Shown: positions 11,025-64,000 of the stretch, piece by piece | How the letters are laid out: every line of letters starts with the position of its first letter | Position numbering within the stretch: the first letter of the stretch is position 1 | Assembly: GCF_035084215.1 (NCBI RefSeq) | Contig: NC_090330.1 | Location: 110,670,001 to 110,734,000 of the forward strand | Direction: 5' to 3' | Length of the DNA: 64,000 nt | DNA from: Heptranchias perlo | Taxonomy: Eukaryota | Made by a program: the position numbers and the translations under genes | The notes under the pieces: model-generated | Told to the model about the DNA's origin: nothing | Database searches by the model: none | Seen by the model: the letters and a program-made list of their open reading frames with translations, nothing else

Positions 11025-12330
11025 AGGGCTTAGCGAGGGTGCAGAAGAGATTTACCAGAATGGTACCAGGGATGAGGGACTTCATTTACGTGGAGGGACG
11101 CTGGGCAGTAGAGGAAGCTGGGATTGTTCTCCTTGGAGCAGAGAAGGTTAAGGGGAGATTTAATAGAGGTGCTCAAAATTATGAGAGGTTTTTATAGAGT
11201 ATAGAATCATAGAAATTTACAGCACAGAAGGAGGCCATTCGGCCCATCATGCCTTTGCCAGCCTAATCCCACTTTCCCGCTCTTGGTCCGTAGCCCTGTA
11301 GGTTACAGCACTTCAAGAGCACGTCCAACCATCTTTTAAATGAGTTGAGGGTTTCTGCCTCTACCACCCTTTCAGGCAGTGAGTTCCAGACCCCCACCAT
11401 CCTCTGGGTGAAAAATTCTTTCCTCAGCTCCCCTCTAATCCTTCTACAAATTACTTTAAATCTATGCCCCCTGGTTATTGACCTCTCTGCTAAGGGAAAT
11501 AGGTCCTCCCTATCCACTCTATCTCGGCCCCTCATAATTTTATACACCTCAACTAAATCTCCCCTCAGCCTCCTCTGTTCCAAAGAAAACAACCCCAGCC
11601 TATCCAATCTTTCCTCATAGCTAAAATTCTCCAGTCCTGGCAACACCCTCGTAAATCTCCTCTGTACCCTCTCTAGTGCAATCACATCCTTCCTGTAATG
11701 TGGTGACCAGAACTGTACACAGTACTCAAGCTGTGGCCTAACCAATGTTTTATACAGTTCCAGCATAACCTCCCTGCTCTTATATTCTATGCCTCGACTA
11801 ATAAAGGAAAATATCCCATATGCCTTATTAATCACCTTATCTCCCAGTCCTGCACCTCTCACTATCCTCCCATTTATTGTGTACTCCCTTGCCTTGTTTG
11901 CTCTCCCCAAATGCATTACCTCACACTTCTCTGGATTGAATTCCATTTGCCACTTTTCTGCCCACCTGACCAGTCCATTGATATCTTCCTGCAGTCTACA
12001 GCAAATTAGGGGAAACTATTTCTAGTGGCAGGAGGGTCGGTAACCAGAGGACACAGATTTAAGATAATTGGCAAAAGAAACAGAGGGGAGATGAGGAGAA
12101 TTCCTTTTACGCAGCGAGTTGTTCTGATCTGGAATTCGCTGCCTGAAAGGGAGGTGGAAGCAGATTCAATAATAACTTTAAAAAGGGAATTGGATAAACA
12201 CTCGAAGGAGAAACATTTACAGGGCTATGGGGAAAGAGCAGGGGAATGGGACTAATTGGATAGCTCTTTCAAAGAGCCGGCACAGGCACGATGGGCCGAA
12301 CGGCCTCCTCCTGTGCAGTAAGATTCCATG
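11025..12330. mobile_element. Nested CR1s: a - strand CR1 3' piece (~11200-12000) inserted into a + strand CR1 3' piece
   Basis: The + element reads ...[13 protein letters not shown] at ~11150-11200 and resumes ...[12 protein letters not shown] at ~12010; ORF 11263..11946 is the inner element. Confidence 0.85.
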
Positions 12331-12989: not shown

Positions 12990-13452
12990 TGAGAACTTTT
13001 ACATCCACCTGAGAGGGCAGGCAGGGGCTTGGACAGTGCAGCGCTCCCTCAGTACTGACCCTCCGACAGTGCAGCGCTCCCTCAGTACTGACTCTCCGAC
13101 AGTGCGGCGCTCCCTCAGTACTGACCCTCCGACAGTGCGGCGCTCCCTCAGTACTGACCCTCCGACAGTGCGGCGCTCCCTCAGTACTGACCCTCCGATA
13201 GTGCAGCGCTCCCTCAGTACTGACCCTCCGACAGTGCAGCGCTCCCTCAGTACTGACCCTCCGATAGTGCGGCGCTCCCTCAGTACTGACCCTCCGACAC
13301 TGCAGCGCTCCCTCAGTACTGACCCTCCGACAGTGCAGCACTCCCTCAGTCCTGCACTGGGAGTGTCAGCTTGGATTATGTGCTCAAGTCTCTGGAGTGG
13401 GACTTGGATTCTGACTCAGAGGCGAGAGTGCCAACCACTGAATCACAGCTGA
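12990..13452 (-). mobile_element. Deu-SINE with internal 33-bp minisatellite (~9-10 units)
   Basis: Reverse complement of SINE head at ~13380-13450; (ccctcagtactgaccctccgacagtgcagcgct)n at 13034-13352. Confidence 0.85.
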
Positions 13453-20597: not shown

Positions 20598-21413
20598 GTC
20601 ATATAAACTGGTGAGCCACTTCCAGAAAATTCCTTGCTTGTACAACAATAAATGTCACAATCGACCGTAGACCCTGTGGTCTTACAGCTTCTTGATTCAA
20701 CCTTACACCCGCTCCCAGAACCCGACAGTCAGAAAACAAACAAAACCTTAAATAGAAACTATTTAGTATATATTATATAGATGGAACGAATAGATGGGAG
20801 GGAGTTAATCGCCATCCGACCCGTCTTGCGAGGCGAGGCTCCCGATTGGGAGCTGAGCTGGGCGGGAGTGCAGATCGGAGGGTCAGAGGCAGAGGTCAGA
20901 CTGTTCAAATCGCTGTACCTCCCCACTCCCCGATCGTCTGGTCAGTAATTTCAATCGCTGGAAAACCGGGAGTGCAGCGGATCAAGTGCGCTAACCTCTG
21001 AGCTCCTCTCTCCGATCCAGGGTAAAGCTCAGCGCCAGGAGACTTGCCTTGCAAGGTTCATCCCAATAACCCAACCATCAGCAACGCCTGCAAGCTTCTC
21101 TCGCTGGTTAGGATGTAACTCAAACTCCTAGATATGGTTAACAGCCTTTTGACTCCCTCCCATCTATTCATTGAACTGTAAGTATTATTATTTCTGTTAA
21201 TATTCAGTGCAATACTTTAATAAACAAAAGTGCCATTTAGTAAGTCAATAGTAGGAAGCTTATGTTTCTTTTACTTAGAGCAGTATGCACCGGGATATTG
21301 CATTAAAAGCTTGTACTTTTGTTTCTCCATTCATATGGCTATGCACTTTTTTCATTTGGCACAATAGATGAGTGAGGTACACAGAATATTGTCATATTGC
21401 TTTATTATAGAAA

Positions 21414-21421
21414 TAGCACCA
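21414..21421 (-). promoter_or_regulatory. miR-29 8mer target site (UGGUGCUA)
   Basis: tagcacca on +, about 55 nt downstream of the collagen stop codon; miR-29 is an established collagen regulator. Confidence 0.7.
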
Positions 21422-21475
21422 TAGTTCATTAGAGGATTGCGACGCAGCTAACAAGCTTGGGAGTCTCAGAATACA

Positions 21476-21557
21476 TTACGTCTTCTTCATGCAGACTTGG
21501 CAGCGGCTGATACGGGTTCGCAGTTCACCCGCCTTGAGGGTCTCCGACTCTGGTTTC
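21476..21557 (-). CDS. COL4A5: COL4A5 last coding exon (NC1 C-terminus)
   Basis: ttcag|G; [26 protein letters not shown] (TAA), 82 bp. Confidence 0.95.
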
Positions 21558-24500
21558 CTGAAAGAAGAACGGAAACTTTAGGAAAGAGCTTTCCACAGAA
21601 GCCGAGGTCCGTCCTCTAAACACTCCCCGCCCGGTGACAGCCTGGGCTCAGAGTTGGTTCTCCAGCCTCTCAGTCAGGAGGCTGTGGGTTTCAGGCCTCA
21701 CTCTGGGGCACTACTGACACTCAGGCTGAGGGAGTGCTGCACAGTCGGAGGTCATTTATCTCATTGCTGTTTGTGGGATCTTGCTGTGCACAAACTGGCT
21801 GCTGCGTTTCCAACATTACAACAGTGACCACACTTCAAAAAGTACTTCATTGGCTGTAAAGCGCTTTGGGACGTCCTGAGATTGTGAAAGGCGCTATAGA
21901 AATGCACGTCTTTCTATTAGCGATATAAGCACCATCTTTTCTTCTTAGTCATACCACACGTGAGAGCCCAGTGACCAGGGGTTACTGGTCTGACCGTCAC
22001 TAACCTGACCAGGGGTTACTGGTCTCACTGTCACTAACCTGACCAGGGGTTACTGGTCTCACTGTCACTAACCTGACCAGGGGTTACTGGTCTCACTGTC
22101 ACTAACCTGACCAGGGGTTACTGGTCTCACTGTCACTAACCTGACCAGGGGTTACTGGTCTCACTGTCACTAACCTGACCAGGGGTTACTGGTCTGACCG
22201 TCACTAACCTGACCAGGGGTTACTGGTCTGACCGTCACTAACCTGACCAGGGGTTACTGGTCTGACCGTCACTAACCTGACCAGGGGTTACTGGTCTGAC
22301 CGTCACTAATCTGACCAGGGGTTACTGGTCTGACCGTCACTAACCAGACCTGGGGTTACTGGTCTCACTGTCACTAACCTGACCAGGGGTTACTGGTCTG
22401 ACCGTCACTAACCTGACCAGGGGTTACTGGTCTGACCGTCACTAACCTGACCAGGGGTTACTGGTCTGACTGTCACTAACCGGACCAGGGGTTACTGGTC
22501 TGACCGTCACTAACCTGACCGGGAGTTACTGATCTGACCGTCACTAACCTGACCAGGGGTTACTGATCTGACCGTCACTAACCTGACGAGGGGTTACTGG
22601 TCTGACCGTCACTAACCTGACCAGGGGTTACTGATCTGAACGTCACTAACCTGACCGGGGGTTACTGGTCTGACTGTCACTAACCTGACGAGCAGTTGCT
22701 GGTCTGACCGTCACTAACCTGACCGGGAGTTACTGGTCTGACCGTCACTAACCTGACCAGGGATTACTGGTCTGACGAGGGGTTACTGATCTGACCGTCA
22801 CTAACCTGACGAGGGGTTACTGGTCTGACCGTCACTAACCTGACCAGGAGTTACTGGTCTGACCATCACTAACCTGACGAGGGGTTACTGGTCTGACCGT
22901 CACTAACCTGACCAGGAGTTACTGATCTGACCGTCACTAACCTGACGAGGGGTTACTGGTCTGACCGTCACTAACCTGACCAGGAGTTACTGGTCTGACC
23001 GTCACTAACCTGATGAGGGGTTACTGATCTGACCGTCACTAACCTGACGAGGGGTTACTGGTCTGACCGTCACTAACCTGACCAGGAGTTACTGGTCTGA
23101 CCGTCACTAACCTGACCAGGAGTTACTGATCTGACCATCACTAACCTGAACATCTCTGTTGTCTCGACCGTAGCGAGCCAGAAGCTGTAAGAGTTAGCGT
23201 AGTAGTTACAGGTGCCACGACCATGACACTCGATGAAGGGAGCAGAGCGGAACGATTCCAGGCACGAGCCGGGAGAGGACAGGGCCTGTCCCGACCCCTC
23301 AGCCCCAGAACTGGTGTGCTGCAGGTAGGAAGAAAAGGACAGAATGAGACGCTGTAGACGGGCCAATCCAAACTCACTCAACTGCAAATAAACAAGTCAT
23401 TACCATGAACTTTATCCCCCCTATTTATTTTCTCCCTTGTCATCTTACCCCTCACATTATTTGTACCTTAAATTTGCTCCCATGTCTCGGCGAGCACTGC
23501 TCGAAGATCAGTGGGTGCGCAGGAGCTGTCTGGGACTACGTTCCTCGTTTTCCTGTGCTACAGGAGCAAATAGTCAGCCTGCAGTCAGCGGGGCTGTTCA
23601 GACAGTGAATCCGGCCCATGAGAAACATGGTCACAAACCCACTGCTCGTCACACCAGTGTCAGCCGTGGCTCAGTGGGATCCCTCTCGCCTCTGGGTCAG
23701 ACAGTCGTCAGTTCAAGTCCCACCCCAGAGACGGAGCAGAGAATCCAGGCCGACACTCCCAGTGCAGGACTGAGGGAGCGATGCACTGTCGGAGGGGCAG
23801 TACCGAGGGAGCGCTGCACTGTCGGAGGGTCAGTACCGAGGGAGCGCTGCACCGTCGGAGGGTCAGTACCGAGGGAGCGCTGCACTGTCGGAGGGGCAGT
23901 ACCGAGGGAGCGCTGCACTGTCGGAGGGTCAGTACCGAGGGAGCGCTGCACCGTCGGAGGGTCAGTACCGAGGGAGCGCTGCACTATCGGAGGGTCAGTA
24001 CCGAGGGAGCGCTGCACTGTCGGAGGGTCAGTACCGAGGGAGCGCTGCACTGTCGGAGGGTCAGTACCGAGGGAGCGCTGCACTGTCGGAGGGGCATTTT
24101 TTGGCTGAGACATTAAACCAAGGCCCTGTCTGCCCTCTCAGGTGGGTGTAATGATCCCATGGCACCATTCGAAGAAGAGCAGGGGAGTTCTCCCCGGTGT
24201 CCTGGACCAACATTTATCCCTCAACCAACATCACTAAAACAGATTATCTGGTCGTTTTCACATTGCTGTTTGTGGGATCTTGCTGTGCGCAAATTGGCTG
24301 CTGCGTTTCCTACATTACAACAGTGACTACACTTTAAAAGTACTTCAATGACTGTAAAGCAGGATGAGTCGTCCTGAGATCGTGAAGGGTGCTATATAAA
24401 TGCAAGACCTTTCTTTCACTGAGTGACCTGGTTACTACAGTGTGCTGTCCCATTTTACTGTTGTTATTGGAAAGGTTTTCGATTAGTATTGATATTTTCA

Positions 24501-27500
24501 CCTGGATGAATGTGTACTTTATTGAACAAAGTACCTCGAGCACAGTATAACTCTGTATCTAGAGCCTGCCTGTAATCTTCATGCTTTGTGCTGCCAATAA
24601 CGTTTACAATACAAGGTGAGTTCAGCTTATTCTGGTGTCTTATGCCTCGTGTGGAGGTTTCTTTGTGTGTTAACTCCCAGGAACCAAAGGTTATTCTGCG
24701 AACTGGCACTGAGATACACTCCCTGGGAGCGTCGCTCCCCACTGGGAGCGTTGCAATGTGGACTCACCCCTGTTTTGTATAGATAATAGTACTTTACAAT
24801 TTAACACTCCTGTTGCAGGGCTCTGCACAATGTGAGTGTTTATCGGGAATTCGGGAGTGGAGGGCGGAGGGCATGATTCGATTTTCCCATTAGCAGTAAT
24901 CGGGCCTGGTGCACTGTCCTCTCAGCCCCCTCGCCCGATAGGCTCTCCCGTCAGGCGAAGCTCCTCGCTGGGAGTGAGTAAACTTGTAAAATCTACCTCA
25001 TAATTCCAATTGGGAAAAATCCCATAGGAACAGGAGGAGGCCATTCAGCCCCTCGAGTCTGTTCCGCCATTTAATGAGATCATGGCTGATCTGTATCCTA
25101 ACTCCATTTACCTACCCTGGCTCCATATCCCTTAATAACCCTTGGCGAGCAAAAATCTATCGACCTCAGGTTTAAAATGATTAATTGAGCACCTACTGCT
25201 TTTTGTGGGAGAGAGTTTCCACACTTCTACCACCCTCTGTGTGGAGAAGTGTTTCCCAACTTCTCTCCTGAATGGCCGGGCTCTGATTTTAAGCTTAGGT
25301 CTCCTTGTCCTAGACTCCTCTAACTCAAGACAACTCAAAGAAATGGAAAAAACATACCATAATATTAGACATGTGGAGAACAATGACAGTAATGAAAGAG
25401 AAGGATGAATAATGGGATGGAGGGCATGACTTGGCCATTGTGTTTAGTTCTCAGGCACTTACCATCATGAAGGAGTAGCCGATCCAAAGGGAATCCCAAC
25501 CATTGGGGCACAGTGGGATTTGAATTGTTTGGCTGTGAACAGCAATCACCATCGCTGGAGCTTCACAAACAGAACACCTGCGAGAGTCGTTATGTTATTA
25601 TTATTATTCCAGGTTGAAGACTTGACTTGACTATTCCAATGCTCTCCTGACTGGCCTCCCATCTTCCACCCTCCATAAAATTGAGCTCATCCAAAACTCT
25701 GCTGCCCGTATCCTAACTTGCATCAAGTCCTGTTCAGCCATCACCCCCTGTGCTCGCTGACCTACATTGTGTTCGATTTTAAAGTTCTCATCCTTGTTTT
25801 CAATTCCCTCCATGGCCTCGCCCCTCCTTCTCTCTGTAACCTTCTCCAGCCCTCCAACCCTCCGAGATCTCTGCACTCGTCCAATTCTAGCCTCTTGCGC
25901 ATCCCCGATTTTCATCGCTTCATCACTGGTGGCCGTGCCTTCAGCTGCCTGGGCCCTAAGCTCTGGAATTCCCTCCCTAAACCTCTCCGCCTCTCTCTCC
26001 TCCTTTAAGATGCTCCTTAAAACCTACCTCTTTGACCAAGCTTTTGGTCACCTGTCCTAATATCTCCTTATGTGGCTCGGTGTCAAATTTTGTTTGATAA
26101 TCGCTCCTGTGAAGCGCCTTGGGACGTTTTACTATGTGAAAGGCGCTATATAAATGCAAATAGTTGCTGTTGTTGAAGTGAAGGAGTTCCAATACTGCGA
26201 TATTATTGGATCAACAACCCACGGGTCTTTAGTTAAAAGCTCTGAAATTGAGGTTGAATAAATCTGGTAATTTGGGGACCAGCACTGGGAAAAAAATGAC
26301 CCGACTGTCTTAGAATTCCGACTAGTTCACTAATCCGCCAGCCACCAGGTCTGGCCTACACATAATTCCACCAGATTGAATAAATGCCCTCCGAAAATTG
26401 CCACCATCTCATTAGGAGCCCTTCTCAGGGCAGCTAGAGATGGGCAATAAATGTGCCCGAGCTTACGATGGTGGTGTGGGGGGTGTGGGGGGTGTGACTC
26501 CACGATCCTGATTTCACAGTGGGGAGCGGCGCATTGCAGGAAATCATGGATTGCAAGCCCATCAGTCCCTGAGGGAGGGGGGTCTCCCTACAGGAGGCAT
26601 CAATTGCAGACGCGCTCCTAATATAAGCTGCAAAGCTCCCCACGTAAACTCGGACAATCATTCTCCCAGCCTCGGTAGAATTACAAGGAATGTTACAGTA
26701 CAGAAACAGGCCATTCGGCCCAACGGGTCTATCCCGGTGTTTAAGCTCCACACGAGCCTCCTCCCTCCCTACTTCATCTCATCCTATCAGCATATCCTTC
26801 TATTCCTTTCTCCCTCTTGTGTTTATCCAGCTTCCCCTTAAATGCATCTATTCTATTCACCTCGACTACTCCATGTGGGAGTGAGTTCCACATTCTCACC
26901 ACTCTCTGGATAAAGAAGTTTCTCCTGAATTCCCTATTGGATTTATTAGTGACTATCTTATATTTATGGCCCCGAGTTTTGGTCTCCCCCACAATGAAAA
27001 CATTTTCTCTACGTCTACTCTATCGAACCTCTTCATAATTTTAAAAACCTCTATCAGGTCCCCCCTCATTCTCCTCTGTACTACAGAAAAGAGCACCAAC
27101 CTGTTCAGTCTTTCCTGATAGTTAGTTGTACCCTCTCAGTTCTGGTTTCATCCTTGTAAATAATTGCTTATGGTCAAACATTCCATTTTTTAATAACCAT
27201 CTGTGTGAAGATGTTTCTGCTAAATTTATCCTTTGCTGTTCTAATGATGATCCGGAGTTTATTCCCCCATGTTACTGTAATAGTCTGATACTCTTGATAG
27301 TGGTAAATTACACCGTGCCACAATGTCTGCAGTCTCACCTGCTGATAAATGGCTTGATAGTTTGACCAATAACAGGAGCCATACTCATTGGCATTGGTTC
27401 GGGAGTGGCCAGCCAATAGGAATAGTCATTTCTTGATGCAAAGTTGCAGACGTTGTTGATATTGCAGAAGAGGAAAGGCATTGTGCTAAATCTCCTCAGA

Positions 27501-33500: not shown

Positions 33501-36500
33501 TATACAATGAACATTTCCTCAAACACTCTTTAAAATAGGTTGGGCAGAGTTTCCTTTTTAATGTTTGGACGTAAAGCACCGCCTGGTTGGGATTGGAGAA
33601 GAGCAACAGGCTGGGGAGATCACACTTCCCCTGTGCAGCCTGTGTGATTTCCCCTCCAAGCTCTGCAGAGGAAACTCTGCTCTGATGCCTGTAATGATCA
33701 GCAGTGATGAGACAAGACGTGTAGAATAAAGATCAAAATCATTAGCCCCAGTAATTCTATGTGAAGTGGAGGTACACTCCTGATGTCACCAATCTCCCCG
33801 GTGTCCTGGGGCCAATATTTATCCCTCAACCAACATCACTAAAACAGATTGTCTGGTCATTATCACATTGCTGTTTGTGGGATCTTGCTGTGCGCAAATT
33901 GGCTGCTGCGTTTCCTACATTACAACAGTGACTACACTTCGAAAAGTACTTCATTGGCTGTAAAGCATTTTGGGACGCCCTGAGGTTGTGAAAGGCGCTA
34001 TATAAATGCAAATCTTTCTTTTTCCTTCTAGTCCTGTGCATTACAAGGATACATGCAGTGACTAGTAATGTCACAGGTTAGTGCTTAACATGTTAATCCG
34101 TTCAATCATGTAAGTCAGCGCTATTCATTGTCATTGTATATACTTTAACAGTGCTAGACTAGTACTTAATTAGTTGAGTGAGTTATTAACTAACCAGTGA
34201 AGCCTGGAACTCCGTGAGGTCCTGGGTCACCCTTCACTCCTGGGACACCAGGGTGCCCAGCACTACCCTGTGGGCAAAAACAATTCACATTTAGTCATTC
34301 TGTACAAAACTAATCACCTGCTGGCTTATGGCTGCAAATTATCAGTCACCATCATTGTCAATCTGTTCAGAGTTAGCTCACTTATATCGCAGAAACTCGA
34401 GGACATTCAGCCCCTCGAGCCTGTTCCGCCATTCAATTAGATCATGGCTCATCTGTGCCTCAATTCCATTTACCCGTCTTTGCTCCGTATTCCTTAATAC
34501 CCTCACCCAACAAAAATCTATCGATCTTAGTCCAGAAATCTTCAATTGACCCCCAGCCTCAGCAGCTTTTTGGGGGAGAGAGTTCCAGATTTCCACTCCC
34601 CTTTGTGTGAAGAAGTGCTTCCTGACATCACCCCTGAACGGCCTGGCTCTAATTTTAAGGTTATGCCCCCTTGTTCTGGACTCCCCCCACCAGAGGAAAT
34701 AGTTTCTCTCCATCTACCCTATCAAATCCTTTAATCATCTTAAACACCTCGATTAGATCACCCCATAATCTATACTCGAGGGAATACAAGCCTAGTCTGT
34801 GCAACCTGTCCTCGTAATTTAACCCTTTTATCCCCGGTATCATTCTGGTGAATCTGCGCTGCACCCCCTCCAAGGCCGATATATCCTTCCTGAGGTGCGC
34901 TGCCCAGAACTGAACCCAATCTCCAGATGGGGTCTGACCAGAGCTTTATATAAACTGGAGCATAACTACCACCCCTCACGATTGTTAACATCTCTAACTG
35001 AGCTGACGATATTGATCCCACAAATAGCGATACTATGTCGTTTGCGTCAGGCATTTTTCATATTTTGTGGAAAGGATCCACATCACGACTGGAATTATTT
35101 TTCTTTCAAGATTAGTTTGAGGAGAATGTTTGAGGACTAAACATATTAAAACCTGCATCGTTCGGGAAACAGACCAATCAGCACTTGTCCAGCATTCCAT
35201 GAGATGGTTCACCCACCATCCCAACAGTGAGATGGTTCACCCACCACCCCAACAGTGAGATGGTTCACCCACCACCCCAACAGTGAGATGGTTCACCCAC
35301 CACCCCAACAGTGAGATGGTTCACCCACCACCCCAACAGTGAGATGGTTCACCCACCACCCCAACAGTGAGATGGTTCACCCACCACCCAAACAGTGCGA
35401 TGGTTCACCCACCACCTCAACAGTGAGATGGTTCACCCACCACCCCAACAGTGAGATGGTTCACCCACCACCCCAACAGTGAGATGGTTCACCCACCACC
35501 CCAACAGTGCGATGGTTCACCCACCACCTCAACAGTGAGATGGTTCACCCACCACCCCAACAGTGAGATGGTTCACCCACCACCCCAACAGTGAGATGGT
35601 TCACCCACCACCCCAACAGTGAGATGGTTCACCCACCACCCCAACAGTGAGATGGTTCACCCACCACCCCAACAGTGAGATGGTTCACCCACCACCCCAA
35701 CAGTGAGATGGTTCACCCACCACCCCAACAGTGAGATGGTTCACCGACCATCCCAACAGTGAGATGGTTCACCCAACATCCCAACAGTGAGATGGTTCAC
35801 CCACCACCCCAACAGTGCGATGGTTCACCCACCATCCCAACAGTGAGATGGTTCACCCACCACCCCAACAGTGAGATGGTTCACCGACCATCCCAACAGT
35901 GAGATGGTTCACCGACCATCCCAACAGTGAGATGGTTCACCCACCATCCCAACAGTGCGATGGTTCACCCACCACCTTAGCTTCCTAAATTATTGCAATC
36001 AAATTTTTTTTTTATTTGTTCATGGGATGTGGGCGTCGCTGGCGAGGCCAGCATTTATTGCCCATCCCTAATTGTCCTTGAGAAGACGCTGAGCCGCCTT
36101 CTTGAACTGCTGCAGTCCGTGTGGTGACGGTTCTCCCACAGTGCTGTTAGGAAGGGAGTTCCAGGATTTTGACCCAGCGACGATGAAGGAACGGCGATAT
36201 ATTTCCAAGTCGGGATGTTGTGTGACTTGGAGGGGAACGTGCAGGTGGTGTTGTTCCCATGTGCCTGCTGCCCTTGTCCTTCTAGGTGGTAGAGGTTGCG
36301 GGTTTGGGAGGTGCTGTCGAGAAAGCCTTGGGGAGTTGCTGCAGTGCATCCTGTGGATGGTACACACTGTGCGCCGGTGGTGAAGGGAGTGAATGTTTAG
36401 GGTGGTGGATGGGGTGCCAATCAAGCGGGCTGCTTTGTCCTGGATGGTGTCGAGCTTCTTGAGTGTTGTTGGAGCTGCACTCATCCAGGCAAGTGGAGAG

Positions 36501-47000: not shown

Positions 47001-50000
47001 AAGATTGGAGAGGCTGGGGTTGTTTTCTTTGGAACAGAGGAGGCTGAGGGGTGATTTAATTGAGATGTCAAAATTGTGAGGGGCCTAGATAGAGTGGATA
47101 GGGAGGACCTATTTCCCTTAGCAGAGAGGTCAATAACCAGGGGGCATAGATTTAAAGTAATTGGTAGAAGGATTAGAGGGGAGTTGAGGAGAAATTATTT
47201 CACCCAGAGGGTGGTGGAGGTCTGGAACTCACTGCCTGAAAGGGTGGGAGAGGCAGAAACCCTCAACTCATTTAAAAAGTACTTGGACATGCACTTGAAG
47301 TGCCGTGACCTACAAGGTCATGGACCAAGTGCTGGAAAGTGGGATTAGACTGGATAGCTCTTTTTCTTTATGGCACAGACACGATGGGCCGAATGGCCTC
47401 CTTCTGTGCCATAAATTTCTATGATTCTAGGATTCTGTGATACCAAATTGTGAGGAGCATTCACGAGGAATGCCCCACTATTATGCACTTAATATCCATC
47501 TTCTTTCTCATTTAGTTTCCCTTCAGGAAGGTTATTCCACAAGGATACCTGAGGAACATTGGAACAGGAGGAGGGCCAATGAGCCCCTCGAGCCTGTTCC
47601 AACATTCAGTTAGATCAAGACTCACTTGTACCTCAACTCCATCTGCCCGCCTTTGCTCCACATCCTTTGAAACCTTACCTAACAAAAATCTGTCAACCTC
47701 AGCCTTGAAATTCGCCTGGACTGGTGCCGGGCCAGCTGGCAGCCTCGTGGGGAGACCTGGTACATTTTGAGACCTGGTGGCTTCAGCCGGAAACACAAGC
47801 TCAGGTCTCAATATCTACCGGTTTCTGGGCTGGAGGGAATGATTTGTTAGAAGCGTTTAAAATTAGGGACAGGGTAGATTGAAACGGACTCCAGTGGCTG
47901 AGGGGGTCTAGAATTGAGGGACGTAGATGTAAGATAAATGTAAGAGACTTAGGACAGAGTGCTGGAGAATTACTTTATTTACACAGAGGGTTTTAAGGCT
48001 GTGGAATTCAGGACTGGAGTTAGTGATTGAAGCAGAGACCACGTCAACATTTAAGAATAGGTGAGTTAAATGATTGAAGGAGGAGGGATTAGGTACTGTT
48101 CGCATGGAGGAGAAACACTGACACTGACTGTTTGGGCCAAAGAGCCTAAATTCCAAGTTGCATGTAATTCAATGTTGGAAAATAAAGCAAGCTAAGAACA
48201 ATATTGTGGGAGGAATATTTCTGAAAGCTACTTATCTGTACCTGGCTGTCCTGGGACTCCGGAGAAGCCTTGTTCACCTGTGAGTCCAGTGCTACCTTTC
48301 CGCCCCGGAAGTCCTGGGTTACCTGTTGAATGATCAAATCAAATTTATTCAGTACCTCTCTTCATTCAGAGGATGGAATCGATTGGTTTTAGGATCAGGG
48401 ATATTCTCGTGACCTACCTGGGATTCCCGGCGCACCTGTGCTCCCTTTGGATCCCGTTGCCCCCAGCGTTCCTGACAGACCCGGCAAACCTGGGTCACCC
48501 TTCAGTCCAGGGTCACCTGGGAAACCCGGGAGGCCTGTATCTCCCTAAATAATAACACACAACATAATCTGATCAGCGCACACCCATCGAGAGGTACCTT
48601 GCACTGTCTCGTACAAGCAGCATCATTTATCTAAACTTTCTGACTCACTCATCGTAATCGTGGAATGTGAGACTTCAGTTATGTGGAGAGACTGGAGAAT
48701 TGGCAAAAGAACCAGAGGGGGAGATGAGGAGAATTTTTTTTTTAACGCAGCGAGTTGTTCTGATCTGGAATGCGCTGCCTGAAAGGGCGGTGGAAGCAGA
48801 TTCAATAATAACTTTCAAAAGGGAATTAGATAAATACTTGAAAGGGAAAAATGTGCAGGGCTATGGGGAAAAGGCAGCGAGTGGGACTAATTGGACAGCT
48901 CTTTCAAAGAGCTGGCACAGGCATGATGGGCCGAATGGCCTCCTTCTGTATCATTCACTGATTCCACGACCTCAACTCCGGACTTAATGGGATCAACTTT
49001 GACTTATGGGTGATCGATCGGGCGTTGGTCGGCCTCCTGTTCCAGCAGCCAAGAGCCCCTTCCCGGCCCCCCATGATTTTGAGGCCCCGGCCTTATTTCT
49101 ATTGGCCAGGCGAGCTGCGGGGAGCCAGGAGAGGGGGTCGCGATCGAGAAGTGTGGGGGTCTGGGCCAGCAACAGCTCAGGTTATTTTTGTGGGTTCACT
49201 CCTGCTCCTCCGGGGCCCCACAAGATTAATTCGACACTCGTCTGTCAGGGAGTCCCAACACCTCCAGCTGATTATTTGGACAATCCTTTCAGGTCTAAAC
49301 TCACCTTTTGACCGGACTCACCAGGAACTCCAAATCCTGGTGTGCCAGGGTACCCCTTTTCACCTTTGCTGCCGGTCGTTCCAGGAAGTCCTGGGATGCC
49401 CGTCTGTCCTGAGTGACCAGGAGGACCGCGGGGTCCTGAGATACCTGTAAAGGTAACGGCAACTTGGTGAGCGTCTCATCACAAGATCAACAGTTCACCC
49501 CACTCAGTCTAAATGTTAAACACTGTCGGAGGGTCAGTACTGAGGGAGCGCTGGACTGTCGGAGGGGCAGTACTGAGGGAGCGCTGCACTGTCGGAGGGT
49601 CAGTACTGAGGGAGCGCTGCACTGTCGGAGGGTCAGTACTGAGGGAGCGCTGCACTGTCGGAGGGTCAGTACTGAGGGAGCGCTGGACTGTCGGAGGGTC
49701 AGTACTGAGGGAGCGCTGGACTGTCGGAGGGTCAGTACTGAGGGAGGGCTGGACTGTCGGAGGGTCAGTACTGAGGGAGCGCTGCACTGTCGGAGGGTCA
49801 GTACTGAGGGAGCGCTGGACTGTCGGAGGGTCAGTACTGAGGGAGCGCTGCACTGTCGGAGGGTCAGTACTGAGGGAGCGCTGCACTGTCGGAGGGTCAG
49901 TACTGAGGGAGCGCTGCACTGTCGGAGGGTCAGTACTGAGGGAGTGCTGCACTGTCGGAGGGTCAGTACTGAGGGAGTGCTGCACTGTCGGAGGGTCAGT

Positions 50001-53000
50001 ACTGAGGGAGCGCTGGACTGTCGGAGGGTCAGTACTGAGGGAGCGCTGGACTGTCGGAGGGTCAGTACTGAGGGAGCGCTGCACTGTCGGAGGGTCAGTA
50101 CTGAGGGAGCGCTGCACTGTCGGAGGGTCAGTACTGAGGGAGCGCTGCACTGTCGGAGGGTCAGTACTGAGGGAGCACTGCACTGTCGGAGGGTCAGTAC
50201 TGAGAGAGCGCTGCACTGTCGGAGGGTCAGTACTGAGGGAGTGCTGCACTGTCGGAGGGTCAGTACTGAGGGAGCGCTGCACTGTCGGAGGGTCAGTACT
50301 GAGGGAGCGCTGCACTGTGGGAGGTTCAATGCTGAGGGAGCGCTGCAATGTTGGATGAGCTGTCTTTTGGATGAGACATTAAACTGAGGCCCCATTTGCC
50401 CTCTCAGGTGGATGTAAAAGATCCCTCAGCCACTATTTCGAGGAATAGCAGAGGAGTTCTCCCTAGCGTCCCGGCCAATATTTATCCCTCATCTGGCCAT
50501 TATCACATTGCTGTTTGTGGGAGAGTTCTGTGCACAAATCGGCTGCTGCGTTTCCCACTTTACAAAAGTACTTCATTGGCTGCAAAGCACTTTGGGACAT
50601 AGAATCATAGAATCATAGAATCATAGAAGTTACAACATGGAAACAGGCCCTTCGGCCCAACATGTCCATGTCGCCCAGTTTATACCACTAAGCTAGTCCC
50701 AATTGCCTGCACTTGGCCCATATCCCTCGATACCCATCTTCCCCATGTAACTGTCCAAATGCTTTTTAAAAGACAAAATTGTACCCGCCTCTACTACTGC
50801 CTCTGGCAGCTCGTTCCAGACACTCACCACCCTTTGAGTGAAAAAATTGCCCCTCTGGATCCTTTTGTATCTCTCCCCTCTCACCTTAAATCTGTGCCCC
50901 CTCGTTATAGACTCCCCTACCTTTGGGAAAAGATTTTGACTATCGACCTTATCTATGCCCCTGAGGTTGTGAAAGAGGCTCTGGAAATGCAAGTTTTTTC
51001 TTTCTTTGTGCTGGGACAGAACAGAATAGATGGACAGATTTACAGATACAAAATCGCTAGAAAGTGAAGACACGCAATTCACTCACTCTCCAGAGTTTTC
51101 ATTGTGCGAGATTACCTGGCAGGCCCATTTCTCCGAAAGCTCCTTTATCTCCCGGGATACCCGTGGAACCTGGTTTTCCCGGTTTTCCCGGGTCACCCGC
51201 TGGTCCTATAGGATGCAAGAGTGACATTTCTATTAGTTTTATTGCTCTATTATTTTCCCCAATTTCACTGCCACGTTGGCCCTCTGCTCAAGGTGCTGAC
51301 TCCCGTCTGGGCCACGGTTACACGGTTACCCTCCAGCACTTCACTCCTGTCACTATTGTTCAGGTGTAGGCCTCGGCGATGAGTGTGGGCAGGCTATTCC
51401 ACTATGGGAGGGGGAGGGAGGTCATCAAAGCCAAGTTTGACCCAGACTTGGTCTCCATCCAAACACATGTATTTTCACCAGGGGAGGTTGGAAAGTGACC
51501 AGGAGCAGCAAACCTGGCCAATCTCCCTCTCCCTAACTGAGGACGATTGAAGGGTCTCTCCCACCGCCCTGAGCGAGGTCAGGGGTCCAAGTGAGGACCT
51601 TTCTGACCTGAGCAGTTCATCCTCTCACCAGGACAGTTTGCTGGGCCGTCAACATTTAAAGGCTGATCCCAGTGACTGGGCACTTCTGGCGAGGGCCAAA
51701 GGCTTGGGAAATCGGGGGGTCAGCAATCCCCTGCATTTCCTGCCCGTTTTGCTTAATGTCGGAGAATCAGGTGCCACGGAACAGCGATCATATGACAGGA
51801 GGGTCTACCTCAGAGCATTCCTTACTAACCCTACGCAATGGGACACAGATAAGCAAAACGCTGAAACCAGCAGCTGGCTCAACGACCTTAAACCAATACT
51901 TGAAATAACTCTTTACGACGAACAAAGGCTGAAGAAAAACAGCGGTCAGCTAAAATGTGACTAGTTTTGATTAATATTAATAAGCAAGAATTGAAACCAA
52001 GTTAATCAACAAGAGCCTTGTCAACAAGAATGCTCTCAGCCAAGATGAAGTAATCGGAAAAAATGGTATAAATTCTGAGAGCTCAGCTCAAGTTTTTTAG
52101 ATTTGCTTCGAAGGGCTGAAGCGGCTCTCGACTGTCAGAGTACGGTGACTCTATAGTCCTCAACTACTCGGGGATTTAAGGTAAAAGCTACCTTGATAAT
52201 TGATGGATATCCTGTCTAAATACTTTTAAGAATTATAATTTTTACCTTTTTAAGAACCTGTTAATGTTGCGATTGCCGGTCTCGCCAGCTGTAGGTTGCA
52301 AATTGTTTCATCAATAAACCTCTGTATAGTTTTTAGACTGTCTCGCATGCTCTTCTGTATCACCAACTCGTGAACCCCATCTCCGTACACTCTTTTGGTG
52401 AGGAGAGACCCCCGGACCCTCACAGTATCCGGGATATTACAATCTGTCTGGAACTTGCTAAAAGCGCTATCTGGAGAACGGTAATATTCTCAGGTGGTAC
52501 CTTTCCCTGGGGAGAGATAGACCAGACCTCAGACCCAGTCAGTTTCTTTAGGATTTGGCTACTTCGACCTTAGGTCGAGAGTGAATGCCTGAGAAGTGCT
52601 CCTGATCTGGGATAGTCCCAAAGGGGCTAGGATTGTAAAATCACCACAAGAGAAGGGGGAATGAGAATTGAATCGTGTTTTTTCAACAATTATTCCAGCA
52701 CGTGTTTACAGAGTATATTTCAGGCACAGTCTGTTTGGAGCTCTGTTTTGCTCCTTACCTGCTTGTCCCGGTAATCCAGGCTCGCCATCTTTTCCTGGCA
52801 TCCCTGGATCACCAGAAACACCTTGATACCCCTTTGTTCCTGGCAAGCCGGACTTTCCTGGGGAGAAATGTTCAAACATTGAGAAGACTGTACCAGAAGG
52901 AGGTGCATTTAGTTACTGTGTGCACCTGATTATCTGCTGCCAATGATCCCACCACAGGCAGTAATAGTAAAACTGACAGCATCGAGGCTATGGGGGAAAG

Positions 53001-55179: not shown

Positions 55180-58100
55180 ACACCGTCACCTCCTGCTCAC
55201 CGTCACCTCCTGCTCACCGTCACCTCCTGCTCACCGTCACCTCCTGCACACCGTCACCTCCTACACACCATCACCTCCTGCTCACCGTCACCTCCTGCTC
55301 ACCGTCACCTCCTGCTCACCGTCACCTCCTGCTCACCGTCACCTCCTGCCCACCATCCCCTCTTACACACCGTCACCTCCTGCTCACCGTCACCTCCTGC
55401 TCACCGTCACCTCCTGCTCACCATCCCCTCTTACACACCGTCACCTCCTGCTCACCGTCACCTCCTGCTCACCGTCACCTCCTGCTCACCATCCCCTCCT
55501 ACGCACCGTCACCTCCTGCACACCGTCACCTCCTGCTCACCGTCACCTCCTGCTCACCATCACTTCCTGCTCACCATCCCCTCCTACGCACCGTCGCCTC
55601 CTGCTCACCGTCGCCTCCTGCCCACCGTCGCCTCCTGCCCACCGTCGCCTCCTGCTCACCGTCGCCTCCTGCTCACCATCACCTCCTGCTCACCATCGCT
55701 TCCTGCTCACCATCGCTTCCTGCGCACCATCCCCTCCTACACACCATCGCCTCCTGCTCACCGTCACCTCCTGCACACCATCACCTCCTGCGCACCATCG
55801 CCTCCTGCGCACCATCGCTTCCTGCGCACCATCGCCTCCTGCGCACCATCGCTTCCTGCGCAGCATCCCCTCCTGCGCACCGTCGCCTCCTGCACACCGT
55901 CGCCTCCTGCTCACCGTCGCCTCCTGCTCACCGTCGCCTCCTGCACACCGTCACCTCCTGCACACCATCGCTTCCTGCTCACCGTCACCTCCTGCTCACC
56001 GTCACCTCCTGCGCACCATCGCCTCCTGCGCACCATCGCCTCCTGCGCAGCATCCCCTCCTGCGCACCGTCGCCTCCTGCACACCGTCGCCTCCTGCTCA
56101 CCGTCGCCTCCTGCACACCATCACCTCCAGCGCACCATCACTTCCTGCACACCATCACTTCCTGCACACCATCACTTCCTGCTCACCGTCCCCTCCTACG
56201 CACCGTCGCCTCCTGCTCACCGTCGCCTCCTGCTCACCGTCGCATCCTGCTCACCGTCGCCTCCTGCTCACCGTCCCCTCCTGCGCACCATCCCCTCCTA
56301 CACACCATCGCCTCCTGCTCACCGTCACCTCCTGCACACCATCACCTCCTGCGCACCATCGCTTCCTGCGCACCATCACCTCCTGCGCACCATCGCTTCC
56401 TGTGCACCATCCCCTCCTGCACACCATCGCCTCCTGCACACCATCGCCTCCTGCACACCATCGCCTCCTGCTCACCGTCACCTCCTACACACCGTCGCCT
56501 CCTGCTCACCGTCGCCTCCTGCACACCATCACCTCCAGCGCACCATCACTTCCTGCACACCATCACTTCCTGCACACCATCACTTCCTGCTCACCGTCCC
56601 CTCCTACGCACCGTCGCCTCCTGCTCACCGTCGCATCCTGCTCACCGTCGCATCCTGCTCACCGTCCCCTCCTGCGCACCATCCCCTCCTACACACCATC
56701 GCCTCCTGCTCACCGTCACCTCCTGCACACCATCACCTCCTGCGCACCATCGCTTCCTGCGCACCATCACCTCCTGCGCACCATTGCTTCCTGTGCACCA
56801 TCCCCTCCTGCACACCATCGCCTCCTGCACACCATCGCCTCCTGCACACCATCGCCTCCTGCTCACCGTCACCTCCTACACACCGTCGCCTCCTGCTCAC
56901 CGTCGCCTCCTGCTCACCGTCACCTCCTGCACACCATCGCTTCCTGCTCACCGTCACCTCCTGCACACCATCGCCTCCTGCGCACCATCGCTTCCTGCGC
57001 ACCATCCCCTCCTGTGCACCATCGCCTCCTGCGCACCATCACCTCCTGCACACCATCGCCTCCTGCACACCATCGCCTCCTGCTCACCGTCACCTCCTGC
57101 TCACCGTCGCCTCCTGCACACCGTCACCTCCTGCATACCAACACCTCCTGCGCACCATCGCTTCCTGCGCACCATCCCCTTCTGTGCACCATCGCCTCCT
57201 GCGCACCATCGCCTCCTGCACACCATCGCCTCCTGCACACCATCGTCTCCTGCTCACCGTCACCTCCTGCTCACCATCGCCTCCTGCGCACCATCGCTTC
57301 CTGCGCAGCATCCCCTCCTGAGCACCATCGCTTCCTGCACACCATCACCTCCTGCGCACCGTCGCCTCCTGCTCACCGTCGCCTCCTGCACACCATCACC
57401 TCCAGCGCACCATCACTTCCTGCACACCATCACTTCCTGCACACCATCACTTCCTGCTCACCGTCCCCTCCTACGCACCGTCGCCTCCTGCACACCATCA
57501 CCTCCTGCTCACCGTCGCCTCCTGCTCACCGTCGCATCCTGCTCACCGTCGCCTCCTGCTCACCGTCCCCTCCTGCGCACCATCCCCTCCTACACACCAT
57601 CGCCTCCTGCTCACCATCGCTTCCTGCGCACCATCACCTCCTGCGCACCATCGCTTCCTGTGCACCATCCCCTCCTGCACACCATCGCCTCCTGCACACC
57701 ATCGCCTCCTGCACACCATCGCCTCCTGCTCACCGTCACCTCCTACACACCGTCGCCTCCTGCTCACCGTCGCCTCCTACACACCGTCGCCTCCTGCTCA
57801 CCGTCGCCTCCTGCTCACCGTCACCTCCTGCACACCATCGCTTCCTGCTCACTGTCACCTCCTGCTCACCGTCACCTCCTGCACACCATCGCCTCCTGCG
57901 CACCATCGCTTCCTGCGCACCATCCCCTCCTGTGCACCATCGCCTCCTGCGCACCATCACCTCCTGCTCACCATCGCCTCCTGCACACCATCGCCTCCTG
58001 CACACCATCGCCTCCTGCTCACCGTCACCTCCTGCTCACCGTCGCCTCCTGCTCACCGTCGCCTCCTGCACACCGTCACCTCCTGCACACCAACACCTCC

Positions 58101-61100
58101 TGCACACCAACACCTCCTGCGCACCATCCCCTCCTACACACCATCGCCTCCTGCTCACCGTCACCTCCTGCACACCATCACCTCCTGAGCACCATCGCTT
58201 CCTGCACACCATCACCTCCTGCGCACCATCGCGTCCTGCGCACCATCCCCTCCTACACACCATCGCCTCCTGCTCACCGTCACCTCCTGCACACCATCAC
58301 CTCCTGCACACCATCACCTCCTGCGCACCATCACCTCCTGCACACCGTCGCTTCCTGCGCACCATCCCCTCCTACACACCATCGCCTCCTGCTCACCGTC
58401 ACCTCCTGCACACCGTCGCCTCCTGCACACCGTCGCCTCCTGCACACCGTCGCCTCCTGCTCACCGTCGCCTCCTGCGCACCATCACCTCCTGCGCACCA
58501 TCACCTCCTGCACACCATCGCCTCCTGCTCACCGTCACCTCCTGCACACCGTCACCTCCTGCTCACCATCCCCTCCTGCGCACCATCGCCTCCTGCACAC
58601 CATTGCCTCCTGCTCACCGTCGCCTCCTGCTCACCGTCGCCTCCTGCACACCATCCCCTCCTGCGCACCATCGCCTCCTGCGCACCGTCACCTCCTGCAG
58701 ACCGTCGCCTCCTGCTCACCGTCACCTCCTGCACACCGTCACCTCCTGCACACCGTCGCCTCCTGCTCACCATCGCCTCCTGCTCACCATCACCTCCTGC
58801 GCACCATCCCCTCCTGCGCACCATCGCTTCCTGCGCACCATCGCTTCCTGCTCACCATCGCCTCCTGCTCACCATCACCTCCTGCACACCATCACCTCCT
58901 GCTCACCGTCACCTCCTGCGCACCATCGCTTCCTGCTCACCGTCACCTCCTGCTCACCGTCACCTCCTGCTCACCGTCACCTCCTGCTCACCATCCCCTC
59001 CTACGCACCGTCACCTCCTGCACACCGTCACCTCCTGCTCACCATCACTTCCTGCTCACCATCCCCTCTTACACACCGTCACCTCCTGCTCACCGTCACC
59101 TCCTGCTCACCGTCACCTCCTGCTCACCATCCCCTCCTACGCACCGTCACCTCCTGCACACCGTCACCTCCTGCTCACCGTCACCTCCTGCTCACCATCA
59201 CTTCCTGCTCACCATCCCCTCCTACACACCGTCACCTCCTGCTCACCGTCACCTCCTGCCCACCGTCGCCTCCTACGCACCGTCGCCTCCTGCCCACCGG
59301 CGCCTCCTGCCCACCGTCGCCTCCTGCTCACCGTCGCCTCCTGCTCACCATCACCTCCTGCTCACCGTCACCTCCTGCTCACCATCGCTTCCTGCTCACC
59401 ATCGCTTCCTGCGCACCATCCCCTCCTACACACCATCGCCTCCTGCTCACCGTCACCTCCTGCACACCATCACCTCCTGCACACCATCACCTCCTGCTCA
59501 CCGTCACCTCCTGCGCACCATCGCTTCCTGCTCACCGTCACCTCCTGCTCACCGTCACCTCCTGCTCACCGTCACCTCCTGCGCACCATCCCCTCCTGCG
59601 CACCATCGCTTCCTGCGCACCATCGCTTCCTGCTCACCATCGCCTCCTGCTCACCATCACCTCCTGCACACCATCACCTCCTGCACACCATCACCTCCTG
59701 CTCACCGTCACCTCCTGCGCACCATCGCTTCCTGCTCACCGTCACCTCCTGCTCACCGTCACCTCCTGCTCACCGTCACCTCCTGCGCACCATCCCCTCC
59801 TGCGCACCATCGCTTCCTGCGCACCATCGCTTCCTGCTCACCATCGCCTCCTGCTCACCATCACCTCCTGCACACCATCACCTCCTGCTCACCGTCACCT
59901 CCTGCGCACCATCGCTTCCTGCTCACCGTCACCTCCTGCTCACCGTCACCTCCTGCTCACCGTCACCTCCTGCTCACCATCCCCTCCTACGCACCGTCAC
60001 CTCCTGCACACCGTCACCTCCTGCTCACCGTCACCTCCTGCTCACCATCACTTCCTGCTCACCATCCCCTCTTACACACCGTCACCTCCTGCTCACCGTC
60101 ACCTCCTGCTCACCGTCACCTCCTGCTCACCGTCACCTCCTGCTCACCATCCCCTCCTACGCACCGTCACCTCCTGCACACCGTCACCTCCTGCTCACCG
60201 TCACCTCCTGCTCACCATCCCCTCCTACACACCGTCACCTCCTGCTCACCGTCACCTCCTGCCCACCGTCGCCTCCTACGCACCGTCGCCTCCTGCTCAC
60301 CGTCGCCTCCTGCCCACCGTCGCCTCCTGCCCACCGTCGCCTCCTGCTCACCGTCGCCTCCTGCTCACCATCACCTCCTGCTCACCGTCACCTCCTGCTC
60401 ACCATCGCTTCCTGCTCACCATCGCTTCCTGCGCACCATCCCCTCCTACACACCATCGCCTCCTGCTCACCGTCACCTCCTGCACACCATCACCTCCTGC
60501 GCACCATCGCCTCCTGCGCACCATCGCTTCCTGCGCACCATCGCCTCCTGCGCAGCATCGCTTCCTGCGCACCATCGCCTCCTGCGCAGCATCGCTTCCT
60601 GCGCAGCATCCCCTCCTGCGCACCGTCGCCTCCTGCACACCGTCACCTCCTACACACCGTCGCCTCCTGCTCACCGTCGCCTCCTGCTCACCGTCGCCTC
60701 CTGCACACCGTCACCTCCTGCACACCATCGCTTCCTGCTCACCGTCACCTCCTGCTCACCGTCACCTCCTGCGCACCATCGCCTCCTGCGCACCATCGCC
60801 TCCTGCGCACCATCCCCTCCTGCACACCGTCGCCTCCTGCGCACCATCGCCTCCTGCGCACCATCGCCTCCTGCGCACCGTCGCCTCCTGCTCACCGTCA
60901 CCTCCTGTTCACCATCGCCTCCTGCGCACCATCGCTTCCTGCGCAGCATCCCCTCCTGCGCACCGTCGCCTCCTGCACACCGTCGCCTCCTGCTCACCGT
61001 CGCCTCCTGCACACCATCACCTCCAGCGCACCATCACTTCCTGCACACCATCACTTCCTGCACACCATCACTTCCTGCTCACCGTCCCCTCCTACGCACC

Positions 61101-64000
61101 GTCGCCTCCTGCTCACCGTCGCCTCCTGCTCACCGTCGCATCCTGCTCACCGTCGCCTCCTGCTCACCGTCCCCTCCTGCGCACCATCCCCTCCTACACA
61201 CCATCGCCTCCTGCTCACCGTCACCTCCTGCACACCATCACCTCCTGCGCACCATCGCTTCCTGCGCACCATCACCTCCTGCGCACCATCGCTTCCTGTG
61301 CACCATCCCCTCCTGCACACCATCGCCTCCTGCACACCATCGCCTCCTGCACACCATCACCTCCTGCTCACCGTCACCTCCTACACACCGTCGCCTCCTG
61401 CTCACCGTCGCCTCCTGCTCACCGTCACCTCCTGCACACCATCGCTTCCTGCTCACCGTCACCTCCTGCACACCATCGCCTCCTGCGCACCATCGCTTCC
61501 TGCGCACCATCCCCTCCTGTGCACCATCGCCTCCTGCGCACCATCACCTCCTGCACACCATCGCCTCCTGCACACCATCGCCTCCTGCTCACCGTCACCT
61601 CCTGCTCACCGTCGCCTCCTGCACACCGTCACCTCCTGCATACCAACACCTCCTGCGCACCATCGCTTCCTGCGCACCATCCCCTTCTGTGCACCATCGC
61701 CTCCTGCGCACCATCGCCTCCTGCACACCATCGCCTCCTGCACACCATCGTCTCCTGCTCACCGTCACCTCCTGCTCACCATCGCCTCCTGCGCACCATC
61801 GCTTCCTGCGCAGCATCCCCTCCTGAGCACCATCGCTTCCTGCACACCGTCACCTCCTGCTCACCGTCACCTCCTGCTCACCATCACTTCCTGCTCACCA
61901 TCCCCTCCTACACACCGTCACCTCCTGCTCACCGTCACCTCCTGCCCACCGTCGCCTCCTACGCACCGTCGCCTCCTGCCCACCGGCGCCTCCTGCCCAC
62001 CGTCGCCTCCTGCTCACCGTCGCCTCCTGCTCACCATCACCTCCTGCTCACCGTCACCTCCTGCTCACCATCGCTTCCTGCTCACCATCGCTTCCTGCGC
62101 ACCATCCCCTCCTACACACCATCGCCTCCTGCTCACCGTCACCTCCTGCACACCATCACCTCCTGCACACCATCACCTCCTGCTCACCGTCACCTCCTGC
62201 GCACCATCGCTTCCTGCTCACCGTCACCTCCTGCTCACCGTCACCTCCTGCTCACCGTCACCTCCTGCGCACCATCCCCTCCTGCGCACCATCGCTTCCT
62301 GCGCACCATCGCTTCCTGCTCACCATCGCCTCCTGCTCACCATCACCTCCTGCACACCATCACCTCCTGCACACCATCACCTCCTGCTCACCGTCACCTC
62401 CTGCGCACCATCGCTTCCTGCTCACCGTCACCTCCTGCTCACCGTCACCTCCTGCTCACCGTCACCTCCTGCGCACCATCCCCTCCTGCGCACCATCGCT
62501 TCCTGCGCACCATCGCTTCCTGCTCACCATCGCCTCCTGCTCACCATCACCTCCTGCACACCATCACCTCCTGCTCACCGTCACCTCCTGCGCACCATCG
62601 CTTCCTGCTCACCGTCACCTCCTGCTCACCGTCACCTCCTGCTCACCGTCACCTCCTGCTCACCATCCCCTCCTACGCACCGTCACCTCCTGCACACCGT
62701 CACCTCCTGCTCACCGTCACCTCCTGCTCACCATCACTTCCTGCTCACCATCCCCTCTTACACACCGTCACCTCCTGCTCACCGTCACCTCCTGCTCACC
62801 GTCACCTCCTGCTCACCGTCACCTCCTGCTCACCATCCCCTCCTACGCACCGTCACCTCCTGCACACCGTCACCTCCTGCTCACCGTCACCTCCTGCTCA
62901 CCATCCCCTCCTACACACCGTCACCTCCTGCTCACCGTCACCTCCTGCCCACCGTCGCCTCCTACGCACCGTCGCCTCCTGCTCACCGTCGCCTCCTGCC
63001 CACCGTCGCCTCCTGCCCACCGTCGCCTCCTGCTCACCGTCGCCTCCTGCTCACCATCACCTCCTGCTCACCGTCACCTCCTGCTCACCATCGCTTCCTG
63101 CTCACCATCGCTTCCTGCGCACCATCCCCTCCTACACACCATCGCCTCCTGCTCACCGTCACCTCCTGCACACCATCACCTCCTGCGCACCATCGCCTCC
63201 TGCGCACCATCGCTTCCTGCGCACCATCGCCTCCTGCGCAGCATCGCTTCCTGCGCACCATCGCCTCCTGCGCAGCATCGCTTCCTGCGCAGCATCCCCT
63301 CCTGCGCACCGTCGCCTCCTGCACACCGTCACCTCCTACACACCGTCGCCTCCTGCTCACCGTCGCCTCCTGCTCACCGTCGCCTCCTGCACACCGTCAC
63401 CTCCTGCACACCATCGCTTCCTGCTCACCGTCACCTCCTGCTCACCGTCACCTCCTGCGCACCATCGCCTCCTGCGCACCATCGCCTCCTGCGCACCATC
63501 CCCTCCTGCACACCGTCGCCTCCTGCGCACCATCGCCTCCTGCGCACCATCGCCTCCTGCGCACCGTCGCCTCCTGCTCACCGTCACCTCCTGTTCACCA
63601 TCGCCTCCTGCGCACCATCGCTTCCTGCGCAGCATCCCCTCCTGCGCACCGTCGCCTCCTGCACACCGTCGCCTCCTGCTCACCGTCGCCTCCTGCACAC
63701 CATCACCTCCAGCGCACCATCACTTCCTGCACACCATCACTTCCTGCACACCATCACTTCCTGCTCACCGTCCCCTCCTACGCACCGTCGCCTCCTGCTC
63801 ACCGTCGCCTCCTGCTCACCGTCGCATCCTGCTCACCGTCGCCTCCTGCTCACCGTCCCCTCCTGCGCACCATCCCCTCCTACACACCATCGCCTCCTGC
63901 TCACCGTCACCTCCTGCACACCATCACCTCCTGCGCACCATCGCTTCCTGCGCACCATCACCTCCTGCGCACCATCGCTTCCTGTGCACCATCCCCTCCT
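55180..64000. repeat. 17-bp satellite/minisatellite, >8.8 kb, probably intronic in COL4A5, with higher-order duplications
   Basis: (caccgtcacctcctgct)n with substitution variants; near-identical blocks recur at offsets 391, 2686 and 4505 bp (23, 158 and 265 x 17). Confidence 0.98.

Follow-up and report, generated by a model that had tools for sequence, protein, structure and literature searches.

A 34-nt minisatellite that reiterates the donor of the last intron in a likely COL4A5 gene of Heptranchias perlo

Minisatellites that reiterate a 5' splice site

Intron 7 of human F7, which precedes the last exon of the gene, harbors a VNTR. Minigenes carrying this 37-bp repeat showed that its pseudo-sites are functional but that splicing takes place at the most upstream intact site alone (PMC1557585). 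The donor choice was unaffected by unit number between 1 and 12, and the first site held against competitors up to a consensus value of 91, only perfect-consensus sites being able to compete (PMC1557585). Position set the choice in these minigenes, with no need for a masking structure and no sign of one (PMC1557585). According to the same account, intron 2 of IFI6 (6-16) contains 25 pseudo-sites and intron 13 of CBS has 15–20 units, and both use the two nearest pseudo-sites, whereas LMNB2 (100-bp unit, 10–15 copies) and intron 4 of PDGF (81-bp unit, 16–18 copies) are reported to use the authentic donor only (PMC1557585). Of two donors separated by more than 40 nt and both occupied by U1, the one farther downstream can be favored (cited in PMC5933811). 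Splicing-associated tandem repeats in ABCA7 and CFTR are described as working by way of protein binding and exon skipping, and the association between their length and splicing has been measured (PMC10078293).

The array described here lies in a 64,000-nt stretch of the Heptranchias perlo genome (GCF_035084215.1, contig NC_090330.1), hereafter the window, in whose coordinates all positions are given. As far as the F7 repeat is documented in the cited source, both arrays have a first unit that spans the exon–intron boundary with about four exonic bases, both have the most upstream site in the mRNA, and in both, identical pseudo-donors follow at a spacing of 34–37 nt (PMC1557585). The present array differs in having 34 units instead of 5–9, a stronger donor, and a location in a collagen IV gene of a non-mammalian vertebrate; copy-number polymorphism and pseudo-site activation are shown in F7, while one assembly and one RNA sample represent the locus here. 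IFI6 and CBS, as described, have a comparable copy number and the same anatomy, but their nearest two pseudo-sites are used, whereas none was seen here in contigs, which drop rare forms. In LMNB2 and PDGF, the array likewise repeats the donor and the normal donor is the one seen, although the reported units are longer and the copies fewer. The ABCA7 and CFTR repeats are also intronic and exon-adjacent, and their length can alter splicing (PMC10078293), but the unit here repeats the donor itself.

With its boundary-spanning first unit, exact copies, and upstream donor as the main one, the array belongs to the donor-reiterating minisatellites of the F7 IVS7/IFI6/CBS type. It looks ordinary, real, and tidy, and it is most likely neutral. 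The first-pass annotation of the window missed this described class and its position-based explanation. COL4A5 was in none of the literature matches listed, a statement that extends to those matches and not to print at large.

Gene context

A type IV collagen gene is represented on the minus strand of 21500–55000 by its 3' half, with Gly-X-Y exons and five NC1 exons. Summed over the five NC1 exons, the match to alpha-5 (5naz) reaches 520.9 bits and that to alpha-1 (1li1_A) 501.8 bits. The alpha-5/alpha-1 values by exon are 102.8/90.8, 142.6/143.7, 85.0/85.0, 143.1/143.7, and 47.4/38.6, alpha-5 being ahead in two exons, tied in one, and behind by approximately one bit in two; alpha-3 scores below in every exon in this comparison with solved NC1 chains. 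The NC1 domain is therefore nearer to alpha-5 than to the other five collagen IV chains by a modest margin that is owed to two of the five exons, and from this resemblance COL4A5, the name proposed in the first-pass annotation, is the likely name of the gene holding the array. COL4A5 is arranged head-to-head with COL4A6 and has IRS4 downstream. No IRS-like ORF was recognised by eye among the 29 ORFs of at least 120 aa in 1–21500, and the gene start lies outside the window.

Three exons frame the array, all on the minus strand. The preceding NC1 exon (25463–25577) is spliced to the penultimate exon (23146–23318), which is 173 nt long and matches NC1 residues 146–202. The coding part of the last exon (21476–21557) consists of 26 codons and a stop and contains the last two NC1 cysteines; its best single-chain PDB match is alpha-5(IV), as the last of the bit pairs above indicates. 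The last intron thus runs from 23145 to 21558 (1588 nt, minus strand), the first exon base of its acceptor being 21557. The 34-nt array fills 74% of this intron, and the remaining 414 nt (21558–21971, minus strand) hold the pyrimidine tract and the acceptor AG.

Several minor features of the gene were recorded. The donor at 34194 (minus strand) has the same +1 to +6 letters as the array donor, with no repeat behind it. A collagen exon end at 49304–49325 (minus strand) has two donor-like GTGAGT sites approximately 17 nt apart; splicing from the downstream site would keep the reading frame into the next exon. If collinear, the longest 3' reach of a contig (run X1; 21028–21475, minus strand) implies a 3' UTR of approximately 450 nt, and poly(A)-signal hexamers are found at 21406, 21221, 20314, and 20108 on the same strand.

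Anatomy of the array

The minisatellite occupies 21972–23149 on the minus strand and has a period of 34 nt, comprising 34 units and one half unit with 32 extra GT copies. The authentic 5' splice site (−3 to +6 at 23140–23148, GT at 23145, minus strand) is also the start of the first unit: the array edge is at 23149 and the exon–intron junction at 23146/23145, so the first unit spans the authentic boundary, as had been claimed and as the spliced contigs described below agree. There are 34 donor positions on the minus strand, from 23145 to 22004, in line with the approximately 34-fold multiplication read earlier from the same letters. CAG/GTTAGT is present at 31 of them, namely, the authentic site and 30 downstream positions; two others differ at −2, and one lacks the GT, a dead copy at 22305–22313 (minus strand) in which GT has become AT at 22310. 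Over −3 to +6, the identity with the authentic donor is thus exact at 30 of the 33 downstream positions, and the copies described in the first-pass annotation as near-identical are, in these 30 exact 9-mers, identical U1 targets.

Spacing between donors is 34 nt at 32 of the 33 intervals and 53 nt once, from 22805 to 22752, where a 19-nt half unit without a donor (22758–22776, minus strand) accounts for the longer interval. The regular spacing noted earlier therefore stands, while the formula 23146−34n that went with it fails after n = 10. Such a half unit would be left by slippage, or by unequal exchange, when one half of a unit misaligns with the other, similar half; the halves, 15 and 19 nt long, are alike at 11 of 15 positions, a match reached in 39 of 5,000 shuffles, and the second half has no GT. 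As a repeat, the array is far beyond chance. The comparison of 32 units, in which the first unit and the unit before the half unit were left out, gave 18 unit types in ordered blocks, and three 10-nt motifs of the unit had no match outside the array anywhere in the 64-kb window.

Donor strength was measured as U1 duplex energy, which is the same for the authentic site and the copies, −9.0 kcal/mol against −14.0 kcal/mol for a perfect site. Among 14 putative donors of the COL4A5-like gene, two of them confirmed by contigs, the array donor ranks 8th, a middling place.

Selection on the copies was considered and rejected. Of 15 variant alleles, three lie within the donor 9-mer, a segment that accounts for 9 of the 34 positions (p = 0.77), and the hairpin arms discussed below vary as much as the rest of the unit (17/384 vs 28/704 positions in 32 units). 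Counted per copy, variation is 3/288 in the donor 9-mer and 42/800 elsewhere, among copies that are not independent; the donor varies less on this count because all three of its changes are singletons, while the others have spread in blocks. Since the copies are not independent, the low per-copy figure is given little weight, though it is the only sign of constraint. Overall, the copies show neither removal nor clear protection by selection.

Splicing of the last intron

The RNA evidence comes from four runs of one sample in one study, taken as RNA by guess, in which 0.72–0.84 of the words were present; 19 further runs from other organisms had a word share of at most 0.17, and the contig evidence is that of the four one-sample runs only. 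These four runs contain most of the last exon and the 3' UTR, and they count as one observation, perhaps from the individual behind the window. Contigs were aligned to 23062–23600, a target that holds the penultimate exon with only the +34 and +68 copies. In each run, one main contig (3866–5433 nt, depth 23–176) aligned to 23145–23319 with 0 differences and left the target at both ends. The loose end at 23145, with a 1-nt overlap, continues into the last exon, being letter-identical to 21527–21556, and the one behind 23319 is identical to 25464–25493 in the preceding exon (4/4 runs each). Because these loose ends belong to the last and the preceding exon, the contigs are spliced and the first donor was used, 23146 being joined to 21557 in 4/4 runs.

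The first donor is thus the dominant junction, and the contigs set no bound on leak. Across the four runs, no contig left 23062–23600 at +34 or +68, and none bridged the exon and the array within this target; contigs show presence, not absence. Because rare forms are lost from contigs, the result is compatible with a leak of some percent. The junction check suggested in the first-pass annotation was in this way run on contigs: it confirmed the canonical 23146–21557 join, while rare isoforms are invisible to it. Run X4 also gave a 64-nt contig inside the array (depth 2.9, 6 differences) that was not joined to the exon; seven in-register array positions differ by 6 from the stretch to which it was aligned, so another part of the array may be its source.

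Predicted products of the downstream donors

Escape from NMD follows the 50–55 nt rule, and exon size has a limit of approximately 300 nt. Spliced to the acceptor at 21557, the +34 and +68 donors (GT at 23111 and 23077) would shift the frame and place the stop in the last exon, whereas the +102 donor (GT at 23043) would run into a TAG located 29 nt upstream of the junction; the frame claims made earlier for all three were borne out by translation. The other 29 GT copies would leave this same TAG at least 63 nt before the junction. By the 50–55 nt rule, only these three nearest pseudo-donors (23038–23114, minus strand) would therefore escape NMD, and each would replace the last 26 residues of NC1, including two cysteines; the arithmetic behind the earlier statement that the nearest copies remove the NC1 C-terminus and escape NMD holds for +34, +68, and +102. 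The exon would lengthen from 173 nt to 207, 241, and 275 nt at these donors and exceed 300 nt thereafter, so under exon definition, the same three would be the plausible competitors.

The last exon contains two further AGs, both weak sites, 8 and 10 nt from its start (21547–21549, minus strand). Pairing the +8 AG with the +68 donor, or the +10 AG with the +34 donor, would restore the frame and give a predicted NC1 domain with a short insertion.

Origin of the array and choice of the donor

The array is best explained, with a probability of roughly 0.78, as a neutral intronic minisatellite whose donor is chosen by position. A short donor-spanning piece at the exon–intron junction would have been duplicated, leaving the 15- and 19-nt halves as a trace; one half would have decayed and lost its GT, and slippage and unequal exchange would then have multiplied the pair. 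The many donors go back to a single event that was copied, not to 33 events. During splicing, exon definition would pair the acceptor of the 173-nt exon with the first donor encountered and leave the later copies out of the competition; those from +136 onward would also give exons of more than 300 nt and NMD targets. We infer this first-donor choice from the mammalian minigenes of F7 intron 7, in which the most upstream site is used. Several points speak against the neutral reading: the RNA evidence consists of contigs of one sample, in which rare forms are lost, the donor 9-mer varies less per copy than the rest of the unit, IFI6 and CBS are described as using their two nearest pseudo-sites (PMC1557585), a downstream preference beyond 40 nt (PMC5933811) can apply from +68 onward, and short-range folding predicts all 33 copies to be less open than the authentic site over −3 to +6.

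The locus enlarges a class known from human genes by one rather long array, and it suggests that the first-donor rule extends beyond mammals even when 30 fairly strong competitors of identical sequence follow every 34 nt. Because one copy lies less than 40 nt away and the others beyond, the array is a handy natural substrate for setting first-donor choice against downstream preference; the products of the three nearest donors would be countable without bias since they escape NMD. It would have greater importance only if a leak or an effect of length were measured.

A leaky array of the IFI6/CBS type, in which the first donor is dominant and +34, +68, and +102 are used at a few percent, is the main rival but unlikely. 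The chains it yields would escape NMD and lack the last 26 residues, two cysteines among them; this would be tolerated noise that possibly depends on allele length. The use of the two nearest pseudo-sites in IFI6 and CBS (PMC1557585) argues for it, as do the downstream preference beyond 40 nt (PMC5933811), the predicted NMD escape of the three nearest products, and the +34 copy, which is more open over −2 to +6 than the authentic site at all three folding settings. The main contig, however, runs unbroken through the normal junction in 4/4 runs, and F7, LMNB2, and PDGF are reported to use the first site only, with no effect of unit number in F7 (PMC1557585).

It is less probable still that the nearest three copies are used at a measurable rate that depends on tissue or allele length, array length tuning the assembly of basement-membrane collagen, or that 32 intact U1 sites less than 40 nt apart load the last intron with U1 and alter the speed of its removal or the choice of the 3' end. 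In the former case, the locus would supply stable mRNAs encoding alpha-5(IV) chains whose NC1 terminus is broken, the last intron sparing them from NMD. The related proposal of the first-pass annotation, a length-tunable source of defective chains, is not borne out: the sole assembled junction is the normal one in 4/4 runs, and 1–12 units had no effect in the F7 minigenes (PMC1557585).

Silencing of the copies by structure, with a stem ending at −3 that lowers U1 binding and leaves the authentic donor alone free, is very unlikely and was rejected as the main mechanism. The authentic donor has no stem, and 22 of the 33 downstream copies can form one, 18 with six Watson–Crick pairs (−7.7 kcal/mol) and 4 with five pairs and a G-U (−5.1 kcal/mol), while 11 are mismatched; the 6-bp hairpin said to precede each downstream donor is therefore perfect in 18/33 only. 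Folding in 70-nt windows also favors this idea, as 0/33 copies are predicted to be as open over −3 to +6 as the authentic site (median 0.003 vs 0.053). However, the stem is weakest where it would matter, with 3 perfect, 2 G-U, and 5 broken forms among the nearest ten copies, and it covers −3 only, −2 to +6 staying free. The accessibility ranking depends on the setting: over −2 to +6, the copies at least as open as the authentic site number 17/33, 32/33, and 33/33 at 70, 150, and 240 nt, and at 240 nt, the authentic site is the least open, 33/33 copies being at least as open even over −3 to +6. A six-pair stem arises in 472 of 5,000 shuffled units, 72 of 300 trimers of shuffled units match the −36.3 kcal/mol of the three-unit fold, and the arms are not conserved above background. 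The stem is within chance and is not a maintained silencer, and the F7 work as reported neither found nor needed one (PMC1557585); the decoy array silenced by structure, as first proposed, thus falls away.

An assembly artefact in the array or its length is scarcely credible and was rejected, since, although the array is known from assembled sequence, 18 unit types in ordered blocks with a half unit are unlike a collapsed or duplicated assembly, and the 64-nt array contig of run X4 speaks weakly for a real array.

Repeats around the array

Simple tandem repeats are abundant in shark and ray genomes, according to a preprint (bioRxiv 10.1101/2025.06.08.657570). Tandem repeats make up 27% of the window, or 15% without its last array. 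A rough estimate, based on 16 putative donors in approximately 30 kb of collapsed gene sequence, gives approximately 5% as the probability that any of five local arrays begins at a donor. Among seven other arrays compared, none touches a donor or acceptor, the nearest lying 76 nt away.

A family of 33-nt units forms four arrays at 5557–6102, 13032–13354, 23765–24093, and 49521–50355, with 10–25 copies each and in both orientations; it is a dispersed element seeding minisatellites, and one of its arrays stops 76 nt short of an acceptor. Tandem copies of a 17-nt C-rich unit, at least 519 of them, occupy 8.8 kb at 55181–64000 and run past the window end; they lie upstream of the first recognised collagen exon and are probably intronic in the same gene. 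Broken LINE-type endonuclease and reverse transcriptase frames, identified from translations by eye, are located at 1261–3698 and 11263–12015.
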